A stretch of DNA of 64,000 nucleotides from Desulfomicrobiaceae bacterium (GTDB taxonomy: Bacteria > Desulfobacterota > Desulfovibrionia > Desulfovibrionales > Desulfomicrobiaceae). Below the pieces are notes generated by a model. That model was not told where the DNA came from and made no database searches. It was given only the letters and a program-made list of their open reading frames with translations. Both the position numbers and the translations under genes were made by a program. The DNA is taken from NCBI GenBank assembly GCA_041685265.1, contig JAWLGC010000005.1:178-64177 (forward strand), in the 5' to 3' direction. Of this stretch, positions 39,266 to 60,809 are shown one piece after another; position 1 is the stretch's first letter; the number at the start of each line of letters is the position of its first letter.

Positions 39266-39311
39266 CATTTCACCTCTGGCCCACACAAACTCGCCAAACC
39301 AGGCCCCTCTT

Positions 39312-39380
39312 CCTTCGCGCCTCTTCGCGTCCTTCGCGGTAAGATTCTTTCACCGCGAAGGACGCGAAGGAATGCGAAGG
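39312..39380 (+). repeat. Long perfect hairpin built from CTTCGCG repeats between trpF and trpB
   Basis: CTTCGCGTCCTTCGCGGT (39323..39340), an 11-nt loop, then ACCGCGAAGGACGCGAAG (39352..39369): 18 bp perfect. Extended by CCTTCGC/GCGAAGG across an internal loop. No T tract. Confidence 0.8.
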
Positions 39381-43163: not shown

Positions 43164-45347
43164 ATGAGTGGAATCAAAGCCCGTCTGGACGCAATTTCTG
43201 CCGTAACCAACTACGCGCCCGTGGAAAAGCCCCTGGATTTCTCCAAATCCGCTGCAACGAAACTGTTCGGCTGCAATGTCTTCAACTCCTCGGTAATGAA
43301 GGCCAGACTGCCCAAGGCCGTTTACAAATCCGTCATGAAGACTATCGAGAGCGGGCAACGCCTGGACCCGTCCGTCGCCGATGTGGTCGCCGCGGCCATG
43401 AAGGACTGGGCCATCGAAAAGGGTGCCACCCACTTCACCCATGTTTTCTATCCCCTGACCGGGCTGACCGCTGAAAAACACGACAGCTTCCTGACCCCGG
43501 ACGACAAGGGCGGGGCCATGGCCGAATTTTCCGGGCAGACCCTGATCCAGGGAGAGCCCGATGCCTCGAGCTTCCCCAACGGCGGCATCCGAGCCACCTT
43601 CGAAGCCCGCGGCTACACCGCCTGGGAAGTGACCAGCCCGGCCTATATTCTGGAAACCCCCACCGGAGCCACCCTGTGCATCCCCACCGCGTTCATTTCC
43701 TGGACCGGTGAAGCTCTTGACAAAAAGACCCCGCTGCTGCGGGCCCAGCAGGCCCTGAACATCCAGGTCCAGCGCGCTCTCAAACTCTTCGGGCATGACG
43801 AGATTGCCAAAGTCTCGGCCAGTGCCGGTGCCGAACAGGAATACTTTCTGGTGGACCGTCATTTCTTCTTCAGCCGTCCGGACCTGCTCCACTGCGGCCG
43901 GACCCTGTTCGGAGCCAAGCCGCCCAAAGGGCAGGAGTTCGACGATCACTATTTCGGCGTCATCCCCGAACGGGTCATGGGCTTCATGCTCGAGGCCGAA
44001 CGGGAACTGTACAAGCTGGGTATTCCGGTCAAAACCCGACACAACGAGGTTGCCCCGGGGCAGTTCGAAATCGCGCCCATCTATGAAAGTGCCAACCTGG
44101 CCCACGACCATCAGCAATTGATCATGGGGATCCTCAAGCGAGTGGCCAAGCGGCACGGCATGGCCTGCCTGCTGCACGAAAAGCCGTTTGCCGGCATTAA
44201 CGGATCAGGCAAGCATCTCAACTTCTCCTTTGGCAACGCCACTCAGGGCAACCTTTTGGATCCTGGTGACACCCCGAGCAAGAACGCCCAGTTCCTGGTA
44301 TTCTGCACCGCAGTCATCCGGGCCGTCTCCAAGTACGCCCCCCTGCTGCGTTCCGTGGTGGCCACGGCCAGCAACGACCATCGACTGGGAGCCAACGAGG
44401 CCCCGCCGGCCATCATGTCCATCTTCCTGGGTGAAGAGCTGACCGAGGTCTTCGAGCAGGTCAAGAAGGGAGCCACTGCCGCTGTCCGGGACAAGGAAAC
44501 CCTGACCGTGGGCGTGGACACCCTGCCCCCTCTGCCCCGGGACACCGGCGACCGGAACCGGACCTCCCCCTTCGCCTTCACCCAGAACCGTTTCGAGTTC
44601 CGGGCCGTGGGTTCAAGTCAGTCCATCTCCGGCCCCACTGTGGCCCTGTCCACCATTGTCGCCGAATCCATCGACTACATCGTCACCAAGCTTGAAGCAG
44701 CCGTGGCCAAGGATCCGGCCAGCCTGAACAAAGCGGTCCAGACGATCATCAAAGAAGTTCTGGACGAGCACGGCCAGGTCATCTTCAACGGTGACGGCTA
44801 TTCCGACGAATGGCAGGAAGAGGCCGCACGCCGCGGTCTGGCCAATCTGCGGACCACTGCCGACGCCCTGCCGGCCATGAATACGCCCGAGGTGGCCGAG
44901 CTGTTCGAAAAGTACCAGGTCCTGTCCAAGCGGGAGCTGGACAGCCGGGCCGAGATCTATCTCGAGCAGTACTCCCTGGCCATCCAGGTGGAAGCCAACC
45001 TGGTGGTCAAAATGGCCAAAACCGTCATCTACCCCGCGGCAGTCAAATACCAGAAGATGCTGGCCGAGACCTGCGTGGCCCTGAAGACCATCGGCCTTGA
45101 GTACCAGACCAGGGGACTGGAAGAACTGACCGCCACCCGTCGCGCCCTGCAGAATGCCGTGGAAGACCTCAAGGCCCTGCTGGCCGCCAAGGAAGAGACC
45201 GATCCCGTGGCCGAAGCACGGTTCTACTGCGACAAGGTCCTCCCGGCCATGCTCGAAGTACGCACGTACGCCGACGAACTGGAAGGCATCGTGGACGATT
45301 CCCTGTGGGCCCTGCCCAGCTACCAGGAAATGCTGTTCATCAAGTAA
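43164..45347 (+). CDS. glnN: Glutamine synthetase type III
   Basis: 727 aa. '[10 protein letters not shown]', '[10 protein letters not shown]', and a length typical of GSIII. Confidence 0.9.
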
Positions 45348-45400
45348 TACTCCATTATATCACTCCGCGGCGGCCGGCCACCGGCCGCCATTTCCTCTGC

Positions 45401-45440
45401 GGCCTGTCCGGTTTTCCTGTTCACCGGACAGGCCTTTTTT
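45401..45440 (+). terminator. Rho-independent terminator after glnN
   Basis: GGCCTGTCCGGT tttcctgttc ACCGGACAGGCC followed by TTTTTT. A second hairpin, GGCGGCCGG cca CCGGCCGCC, lies at 45369..45389. Confidence 0.85.
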
Positions 45441-45545
45441 GTTGGTTTTTGGTTTCCGGTTTTTCGTTTCTGGTTGTTGGTTTCTGGTTTCCGGCATGTG
45501 CCTTCCTCGCTCCTGCTAAAAACCAGAAACGAAAAACCGGAAACC
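45441..45545. repeat. Heptad-periodic array (nnYnGTT x7-8) forming a perfect 25-bp inverted repeat
   Basis: gttggtt tttggtt tccggtt tttcgtt tctggtt gttggtt tctggtt. The arm 45451..45475 is the exact reverse complement of 45521..45545, with a 45-nt loop. Confidence 0.9.
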
Positions 45546-45666
45546 TTCCCCGGCAACTTGCAAAACATTGCAGAGCCTTGTACCCAATACAGACAAAGAA
45601 TCCAGCCCGCACCCGGCCACATGGTGCGGCACCGGTGTCACTCACTCAACTGAACGAGGAACCACT

Positions 45667-46221
45667 ATGCTCAACCCCAAGGACTGCATCCTCTACAGCG
45701 GCGGCGCCCAGGGCGCTGAACAGGAATTCGGCAAACAGGCAGAAGCGTACGGCATCCAGGAGGTGAATTACTCCTTTGACGGACACAAGATCGAACGCAC
45801 CCGGGGCATGCGGGTTCTGACCTCGGAAGAGCTGGCTCTCAAGGATGTCAGCCTGACCTATGTCTCCAAACTCATGAACCGGACCTTTTCCCGGGCCCCC
45901 ATCTTTCGCAAGGTTCTTCAGTCCATCTGCTGGCAGGTCAGCGGCGGCCACGAGGTGTTCGTCATCGGCACCATCCAGGAGGATGACACGGTCAAGGGAG
46001 GCACAGGCTGGGGCGCGGAATACGCTAAAATCTGCAACAAGCCCCTGTACGTATTCGGTCAGAAACGCAACGGCTGGTACAAATGGGAAAAGCAGCAATG
46101 GATCGAGGTGGCCCCGCCGGTCATCTCCCACCGCCATTTCTCCTGTACCGGCACCAGGTTTTTGGAGGACAACGGGAGACAGGCCATCGCAAGCCTGTTT
46201 GAGCGATCCTTCGGAAAATAA
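45667..46221 (+). CDS. Hypothetical protein, possibly a Rossmann-like SLOG/LOG/DprA-type nucleotide-binding fold
   Basis: ORF 45568..46221, trimmed to MLNPKD after GAGGAA. 'ILYSGGAQGAEQEFG' and 'VFVIGT...GGTGWGAEYA' resemble SLOG-type glycine-rich loops. The assignment is tentative. Confidence 0.5.
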   Translation: MLNPKDCILYSGGAQGAEQEFGKQAEAYGIQEVNYSFDGHKIERTRGMRVLTSEELALKDVSLTYVSKLMNRTFSRAPIFRKVLQSICWQVSGGHEVFVIGTIQEDDTVKGGTGWGAEYAKICNKPLYVFGQKRNGWYKWEKQQWIEVAPPVISHRHFSCTGTRFLEDNGRQAIASLFERSFGK

Positions 46222-46267: not shown

Positions 46268-46306
46268 GAAAAAGGGCGAAAACCTGATCAGGTTTTCGCC
46301 CTTTTT
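46268..46306. terminator. Bidirectional rho-independent terminator between convergent genes
   Basis: A-run (AAAAA), then GGGCGAAAACC tgatca GGTTTTCGCCC, then T5. Confidence 0.85.
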
Positions 46307-46339
46307 AACTGGAAAGGAGAACAGCATGACACCGCCCCG

Positions 46340-51388: not shown

Positions 51389-51470
51389 GATCGTTTCCTT
51401 CATATTTTTAATTCTAAGATTCTAGAATTGAAGACAAATTACAATTTTTCCGCTATGATATAAAATTTTC

Positions 51471-51595
51471 AGAATCCCAGAATCCCAGAATCCCAGAATC
51501 CCAAAATCCCAGAATCCCAGAATCCCAGAATCCCAGAATCCCAAAATCCCAGAATCCCAGAATCCCAGAATCCCAGAATCCCAGAATCCCAGAAT
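51471..51595. repeat. Octanucleotide tandem repeat AGAATCCC (15 full units plus 5 nt)
   Basis: Units 5 and 10 are AAAATCCC, which gives a 40-bp higher-order unit. The array abuts the kinase stop codon (51597) and lies about 80 nt upstream of rdgB. Confidence 0.97.
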
Positions 51596-57317: not shown

Positions 57318-57359
57318 CCAAGGCTATAGCCCATAGTCCATAGCCTCTTGCCCCTAGCC
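57318..57359 (+). repeat. Heptad-periodic array nnTnGCC (5-6 units) in the hisS-aspS spacer
   Basis: (ccaaggc) tatagcc catagtc catagcc tcttgcc cctagcc. TAG triplets at 57327, 57334 and 57341 are spaced exactly 7 nt apart. Confidence 0.85.
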
Positions 57360-57400
57360 CAACCATACCAACAATTTTCAGAATAAAAAGGAACCACATA

Positions 57401-60646: not shown

Positions 60647-60654
60647 ATAAAAAA

Positions 60655-60792
60655 GGGAATAGGCAAGAGGCGAGGGGCTATAGGCAATAGGGAAGAAATA
60701 CCCCCGCCCATAGCCGGTTGCCGATTGCCTATCGCCTCTTGCCTATAGCCGATCGCCTATTGCCCATGGCCTCTCGCCCATCGCCTCTAGCC
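60655..60792. repeat. Heptad-periodic arrays in inverted orientation: GGCnnnn x5-6, then nnnnGCC x13
   Basis: Left arm (60655..60696): gggaata ggcaaga ggcgagg ggctata ggcaata gggaaga. Right arm (60702..60792): ccccgcc catagcc ggttgcc gattgcc tatcgcc tcttgcc tatagcc gatcgcc tattgcc catggcc tctcgcc catcgcc tctagcc. 60659..60673 is the exact reverse complement of 60732..60746. Confidence 0.9.
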
Positions 60793-60809
60793 CTCCCCTT
60801 CGGAGCTGC

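Follow-up and report, generated by a model that had tools for sequence, protein, structure and literature searches.

With a probability of roughly 0.7, the inverted heptad repeat that lies behind glnN belongs, as a copy without a gene, to a family of heptamer-array hairpins found throughout the genome. That this genome contains such a family is clear: its members lie in intergenic DNA, keep to a strict polarity and fall into several sequence dialects, among them the SGTTTYY dialect from which the present element is built. In the bacterial family, arrays of this kind enclose genes for S23p, the small protein of 23S rRNA intervening sequences. The element adds a new member to a repeat class that is already known, and both its heptad dialect and its host lineage are new for that class. 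It was found in a window of 64 kb (the whole stretch of DNA that was analysed) belonging to a 2.86-Mb, 58% G+C draft genome, that of a sulfate reducer, as dsrA is present. The features of the locus are collected in Table 1.

Table 1. Features of the glnN locus and of two sibling arrays, in coordinates of the 64-kb window
Feature	Position	Strand	Description
glnN (type III glutamine synthetase), upstream gene	43164..45347	+	Pfam GSIII_N, Gln-synt_C, Gln-synt_C-ter
First glnN 3′-UTR hairpin, G+C-rich	45369..45389	+	9 G-C pairs, loop 3; terminator-like scan
glnN intrinsic terminator	45401..45440	+	12-bp stem 45401-45412/45423-45434, 100% complementary, then T6
G/T-rich heptad array (left array)	45441..45496	+	7 units nnnnGTT and 1 degenerate; TRF period 7 and 14
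Left stem arm	45451..45475	+	GGTTTCCGGTTTTTCGTTTCTGGTT, exact reverse complement of 45521-45545
Loop, 45 nt	45476..45520	.	Left-array tail and unique sequence GGCATGTGCCTTCCTCGCTCCTGC
C/A-rich heptad array (right array)	45518..45545	+	Reverse complement of four GTT-type heptads; includes right arm 45521-45545; TRF
Downstream gene, 184 aa	45667..46221	+	Own gene call; also called in public assemblies
Sibling element, GGCnAnn array facing its complement (GCC dialect)	60654..60793	.	TRF
Sibling single array, ATAGCCC type	57326..57361	+	TRF

The left array begins directly 3′ of the T6 run of the glnN terminator. Seven consecutive units (gttgGTT, tttgGTT, tccgGTT, tttcGTT, tctgGTT, gttgGTT and tctgGTT; 45441-45489) keep GTT in phase while the other positions vary, and a degenerate eighth unit, tccgGCA, ends at 45496. 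In an alternative register the array reads as SGTTTYY with a 14-nt super-unit, GGTTTTTSGTTTCY; TRF scores it 75 at period 14 and 56 at period 7, with 7.0 copies, and counts 3.7 copies in the right array. The 25-bp stem lengthens to 28 nt with one mismatch (45451-45478/45518-45545). The original prediction had described seven to eight heptads starting at the terminator T tract, exact complementarity between 45451-45475 and 45521-45545, a 45-nt loop and a position about 120 nt upstream of the gene at 45667. All of this is borne out: the heptads agree base by base, the arms pair over 25 nt without a mismatch, the loop has the length given, and the start codon at 45667 lies 121 nt past the right arm.

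Unlike most members of the family, the element does not abut genes: the stop codon of glnN is 95 nt away and the following start codon 121 nt. Of the two hairpins that precede it, the one at 45369-45389 has no U tract after it, and the other is the intrinsic terminator, which in the RNA fold forms a hairpin separate from the heptad stem. The large heptad stem is followed by TTCCCCGG, with no U tract, and thus does not have the make-up of an intrinsic terminator. A promoter scan found no sigma-70-like promoter between 45546 and 45667, nor one adjoining the hairpin, and a search of the element against Rfam returned only generic miRNA-hairpin matches far below the gathering threshold. The 184-aa gene downstream has no Pfam match. 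Beyond it, between this gene and a DUF554 gene, is a bidirectional terminator in the form of a palindrome (46268-46308) whose 18-nt arms pair perfectly around a centre of 4 nt (AAAAAGGGCGAAAACCTGATCAGGTTTTCGCCCTTTTT). Four independent assemblies all stop at 46298, inside this palindrome; the shared end is probably an assembler artefact.

The stem is far longer than expected by chance in shuffled sequence. At 25 nt it is the longest perfect inverted repeat in the 64-kb window (loop up to 150), compared with 10-14 nt in 30 block-shuffled windows; when the 115-nt segment was shuffled 1000 times, the longest run was 4-9 nt in 999 trials and 15 nt in the remaining one. The RNA fold of 45395-45560 has an energy of -83.7 kcal/mol (z = -10.7) and the DNA fold of 45436-45550 one of -31.1 kcal/mol (z = -8.0). 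Genome-wide, the length of the perfect stem ties at about 13th-18th place.

The element most probably belongs to a wider family. In an autocorrelation scan, period 7 was the most enriched tandem period of the genome, with 100 arrays vs 6-58 for periods 5, 6 and 8-11 (28, 44, 35, 6 and 6 arrays at periods 6, 8, 9, 10 and 11, respectively). Because 44 arrays have period 8, seven is the main unit length and not the sole one; a near-perfect array of the 8-nt kind, (CAGAATCC)15.8, occurs in the window at 51470-51595. TRF finds 136 period-7 arrays of at least three units, so the repeat is not unique, and 116 of them (85%) are intergenic in a genome in which codon-usage gene calls cover 86% of the sequence and only about 14% is intergenic. 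Copy number ranges across the family from 3 to 20. In the draft, heptad arrays stand at the ends of many contigs (C26:1-107, C164:9-94 and 93423-93521, C175:11-76, C193:3-97 and C69:101-221, for example). Since arrays break the assembly, the census is a lower bound.

The arrays are arranged according to a simple rule. Where two lie within 260 nt of each other, a G/T-rich array is followed by a C/A-rich one in 20 cases, the reverse order occurs once and six pairs have the same sense. Such pairs read alike on both strands, so the imbalance of 20 vs 1 is genuine and does not come from the choice of strand. Fifteen of 18 array pairs lie between co-directional genes. Arrays mostly abut genes, at 0-20 nt, and in 66 of the 71 that come within 40 nt of one the G/T-rich strand runs 5′ to 3′ away from that gene, a regularity that holds both at gene 3′ ends (43/48) and at gene 5′ ends (23/23). 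The element at 45441-45545 has the correct polarity for this rule, but it lies 95 and 121 nt from its neighbours. All 22 array pairs tested fold better than shuffles, with z from -2.5 to -14, and eight of the 22 contain uninterrupted helices of at least 19 bp; arm lengths and loops vary at every array-pair locus. In three of them (C120, C161:9537 and C170) the two arms are of different dialects. Arms of this sort pair poorly, and polarity is therefore the stronger regularity of the family, ahead of complementarity.

Several dialects coexist under this rule. AAGGGTT, AAGTGTT and AGGTTTT arrays occur alongside GGCnAnn (the GCC arrays, with two examples in the window) and SGTTTYY. The original prediction had likened the architecture of the present element to that of the GCC arrays, and the likeness is genuine: period, layout, orientation rule and genomic habitat are common to both, and to the TTAAGGG/GGTTTTA-type arrays as well. 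Two other groups of inverted repeats were noticed in the same genome. The CTTCGCG-type hairpins (C153:56-124, C52:53431-53497, C187:11340-11402 and C194:31185-31235) are a further short-period dialect, with perfect arms of 22-29 nt and loops of 11 nt in three and of 7 nt in C194; the window has a copy at 39311-39380, between trpF and trpB. A separate dispersed palindrome family, TTTCCTGCACCCTGAAGGGGTGCGACAA, has perfect arms of 23-28 nt and loops of 14-17 nt (C48:608-678, C52:1507-1577, C31:78-141 and C31:1954-2014); it is not heptad-periodic and looks REP-like.

The SGTTTYY dialect itself is represented by about ten loci in the genome, with a common 14-nt super-unit, GGTTTTTCGTTTCY. Its pairs follow the family order without exception, seven being G/T-then-C/A and none the reverse. 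The dialect is also found in related genomes. With four in-phase GTTT units at period 7 as the criterion, it turns up in 8 of 35 genomes of the bacterial family, spread over three of its six genera, two of them other than that of the present genome, with 51 occurrences in this genome and 21, 16 and 15 in G010, G006 and G015; a control with the reversed pattern gave about 0. The heptads of the relatives are identical (GTTTTAG, GTTTTAC, GTTTCTG and GTTTTTG), and the layout is likewise G/T then C/A.

The principal rival to family membership as an explanation is that the hairpin is a locus-specific RNA structure, in which selection maintains perfect pairing because the stem serves as a processing site, a stabiliser of an mRNA end, an insulator between glnN and the gene at 45667, or a structured 5′ leader. 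We consider this unlikely. The perfection of the stem (25 bp, or 28 with one mismatch) and its folding z-score of -10.7 are what would be expected of such a structure, and a gene for RNase III is present. Perfection is nevertheless poor evidence of selection, because the two arms share a small set of heptads. When the order of the four heptads in the right arm was shuffled, a run of at least 25 nt was obtained in 19% of trials (p = 0.19), and the same permutation of heptad order within an arm was not significant for any array pair in the genome. Own-locus arms showed no excess complementarity over arms taken from other loci, in a comparison that is poorly normalised for this locus and therefore counts for little. 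Perfect runs at sibling GTT loci are only 7-11 nt, and some family members have arms of different dialects, as noted above. The hairpin also sits behind a complete and strong intrinsic terminator and lacks a U tract of its own. The statement that a 25-bp perfect stem must be under selection or very recent is therefore not supported as it was argued.

Comparison among strains bears on the same question. Of six independent metagenome contigs of the species, which come from four distinct samples, five have the element without any difference, and its stem is unchanged in all six. Since all six reproduce this array, it is unlikely that the other arrays of the genome are assembly artefacts. The sixth contig, L189, represents a variant strain (SRR7943696) and has 15 differences from the window over 1832 positions. 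The arrays and the terminator hairpins are free of them, and both arms are unchanged; the two differences inside the element, 45502 C>T and 45509 G>A, are in the loop. This pattern is compatible with constraint on arm pairing, although with one variant strain the contrast between no array changes and two loop changes is not significant (P ~0.1-0.2). It does indicate that the heptad array is not hypervariable in copy number. Of the comparison of closely related strains that had been proposed, presence was thus seen in 6/6 contigs, and the arms of L189 contain no changes. Eight of the 15 differences are in the 121-nt spacer. They include an 11-nt block at 45583-45593 (and 45572), upstream of the 184-aa gene, where CCCAATACAGA is replaced by GGAAATTTATC and the surroundings are identical; this may be a promoter or operator polymorphism.

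Beyond the species no counterpart of the locus was found among the relatives compared. Relatives of glnN in the genome contigs, metagenome contigs and GTDB relatives reach at most 65-71% identity, and among nine same-family glnN loci checked none has the hairpin after the gene, which speaks against a selected function tied to glnN. A GTT-type array of G006 is similarly missing from the orthologous spacers of its congeners G002 and G010; those spacers are 58% identical, and for this reason the borders of an insertion at the G006 locus cannot be drawn. In G029, of another family in the same order, a period-6 inverted array follows the terminator of that genome's own glnN (L084:3824-3924). Here (TCGGTA)n faces (TACCGA)n across a spacer of 27 nt; the two pair over 37 nt with 92% complementarity, the G/T-rich arm comes first, and the array is analogous, not homologous, to the heptad element.

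Another possibility is that the repeats are an array of sites bound by a protein that recognises single-stranded DNA or RNA in a 7-nt register, with the GTT(T) core as the contact and the variable positions as spacers. The constant core amid variable positions and the strict polarity would suit such a protein, as would the patchy distribution of the heptad vocabulary over 3/6 genera, as if a sequence-specific agent were shared; the TAACTGA heptamers of Beggiatoaceae have been proposed to bind a regulator (PMC4679880). Even so, a single reader is hard to reconcile with at least three unrelated dialects under the same rules in one genome and with copy numbers that span 3 to 20. No candidate protein was found, and Y1/RAYT-type transposases (PF01797) do not track the arrays: G006 has arrays without the gene, many array-free genomes have several such genes, and this genome has one weak match only. 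We regard a binding array as very unlikely.

Still less probable is a mobile non-autonomous element, a MITE or REP/BIME, with terminal inverted repeats in which the heptad periodicity is a coincidence. In enterobacteria and pseudomonads, REP/BIME elements are intergenic repeats that form hairpins; they often lie between co-transcribed genes and can stabilise the mRNA upstream of them, and REPs are near-identical palindromes of 20-40 nt spread by RAYT transposases. The heptad element is likewise a hairpin-forming intergenic repeat, its layout resembles terminal inverted repeats, and the exact stem 25-mer is present a third time in the genome, at C52:7755-7779. It differs in having periodic arms, no conserved palindrome and no link to RAYT. 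As a MITE it was rejected on its unique loop and flanks and on the lack of any target-site duplication or direct repeat at its borders; as a REP/BIME, on the absence of a second full-length copy from the genome and on the lack of correlation between PF01797 genes and arrays across the bacterial family. The differing arm lengths and loops of its relatives tell against both. Finally, an 82-aa ORF on the minus strand (45320-45568), of which the hairpin would be a part, is called in three metagenome contigs and its frame is open, but it overlaps the end of glnN, reads through both glnN hairpins and the heptad hairpin, encodes a low-complexity product with no Pfam hit on record and is rejected by the codon-usage gene caller, so that the call is likely spurious and a real gene here hardly conceivable.

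We return to the heptamer-array family, for which there are close parallels elsewhere; repeats of this kind were first reported from Xanthomonas. In Rehm et al. (2015, PMC4692102), the (GGGAATC)n repeats of Xanthomonas campestris/citri and the GGGGA(C/T)T repeats of Nostoc are described as convergent, intergenic heptamer repeats; 89-93% of them are intergenic and Xanthomonas has 70-75 convergent pairs per genome. The rule given there for Xanthomonas is that the G-rich strand is sense within ~50 bp after a stop codon and antisense within ~50 bp before a start codon (PMC4692102). The arrays of the present genome share with these repeats the heterogeneous 7-nt unit (TRF period 7/14 here), the genome-wide over-representation, the mostly intergenic location, mostly between co-directional genes, and the convergent pairs with the G-rich sequence first on the plus strand and then on the minus. 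They also share the orientation relative to stop and start codons, to which the 66/71 figure above corresponds, and the arrays are not kept at the same genes between related species. There are differences as well. The host is a sulfate reducer, several dialects are found in one genome, and this particular copy lies at a distance from genes, directly behind a terminator. The SGTTTYY heptads have only GG and cannot supply the three-tetrad G-quadruplex used to define the class, whereas other dialects of the genome (TTAAGGG, GGGCTAT) do have GGG. The Xanthomonas rules thus hold in a distant lineage for heptads unable to form G-quadruplexes, which argues against G-quadruplex formation as the factor that sets the architecture. 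The rule is also geometric, in that the G/T-rich strand enters the spacer from either gene end, and this points to a process at the DNA level.

Less close are the STRR heptanucleotide repeats of heterocystous cyanobacteria and the TAACTGA repeats of Beggiatoaceae (MacGregor 2015, PMC4679880). They too are intergenic tandem heptamers of patchy phylogenetic spread, often ending a few bases from a start codon, but for the most part a single direct array repeats one fixed heptamer, and pairs in inverted orientation are seldom found (the orange Guaymas genome has one). Among long simple repeats in bacteria heptamers are the most frequent, which PMC4679880 summarises together with an explanation by slippage.

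A second parallel is with the S23p intervening sequences of 23S rRNA, known from Coxiella burnetii and Leptospira (Warrier et al. 2016, PMC4990558). In Coxiella the S23p ORF lies within a 28-bp stem that has one mismatch and is cut by RNase III, and tandem heptamers, in a number that varies among strains, adjoin the ORF inside the element (PMC4990558). The terminal inverted repeat of the present element is alike in length and in its single mismatch, and S23p genes in this bacterial family lie inside array hairpins of the same design. The difference is that the 45-nt loop here has no ORF and the element is not in rRNA. Genes for S23p (PF05635) are present in many genomes of the bacterial family, and inverted short-period arrays bracket seven of nine such loci examined (L207, L208, L211, L212, L213, L214 and L215), but such arrays occur in only one of 17 equally large control windows next to those genes (Fisher p = 4e-4). 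In G015, for instance, the gene has (AGTTTTAG)12.6 on one side and (CTAAAAC)5 on the other, and its final codons extend into the C/A arm; the arm at this locus includes an 8-nt unit. The genome studied here has a single frameshifted S23p remnant, on the minus strand of C92 at ~1620-1960, flanked by (AGTTTTG)4.6 at 1542-1573 and by AAAACTCAAAAC, a complementary CAAAACT arm, at ~1962-1985. A tblastn search with an S23p protein of the bacterial family found no remnant in the 45-nt loop of the element, and none besides C92 in the loops of the array family, the three longest included.

What these data establish is an association between arrays and S23p genes in this bacterial family (7/9 vs 1/17). 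S23p genes may simply have settled in hairpins that existed already. It is also possible, if on balance doubtful, that the gene-less hairpins derive from S23p cassettes (S23p being an Avd-like four-helix-bundle protein) as shells that have lost the gene, or are related to them as non-autonomous forms, that is, of a selfish element tolerated by way of RNase III, whose arms are made by directional synthesis.

On the likeliest account of the element, replication slippage, together with copying from one arm or locus to another, would create and remodel the arrays at the DNA level. The perfect 25-bp stem would then be a by-product of the use of the same 14-nt super-unit in both arms, with no adaptation specific to the locus, and the element would have no regulatory role specific to glnN or to the downstream gene. 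It might be transcribed by read-through of the glnN terminator or as the leader of the next gene. If so, its 25-28-bp duplex would be expected to block 3′ exonucleases and to be a substrate for the encoded RNase III, by analogy with Coxiella.

The original prediction had offered three roles: a processing site, a protein-binding cruciform or a REP-like member of a heptad repeat superfamily. The last stands, in view of the common period, architecture, orientation and habitat. A processing site for RNase III at the RNA level is plausible by the same analogy, because a duplex of 25-28 bp fits the enzyme and its gene is present. A protein-binding cruciform is unlikely; the 45-nt spacer disfavours cruciform extrusion, and no partner protein was found.

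By itself the locus matters little, being one further copy of a known and unexplained repeat class, and the element should not be annotated as a regulator of glnN, as a small RNA or as an 82-aa gene. The link between S23p and the arrays, on the other hand, holds in this bacterial family. If the gene-less hairpins are indeed shells of S23p cassettes, they would represent a selfish element that tolerates insertion between genes or into rRNA, its stem being removed or neutralised by RNase III at the RNA level. The inward polarity of the G/T-rich strand and the arms of mixed dialect would then reflect directional, templated or reiterative end synthesis and not random slippage, and the spread and decay of such elements would account for the fact that, among long simple repeats in bacterial spacers, those of 7 nt are the commonest.
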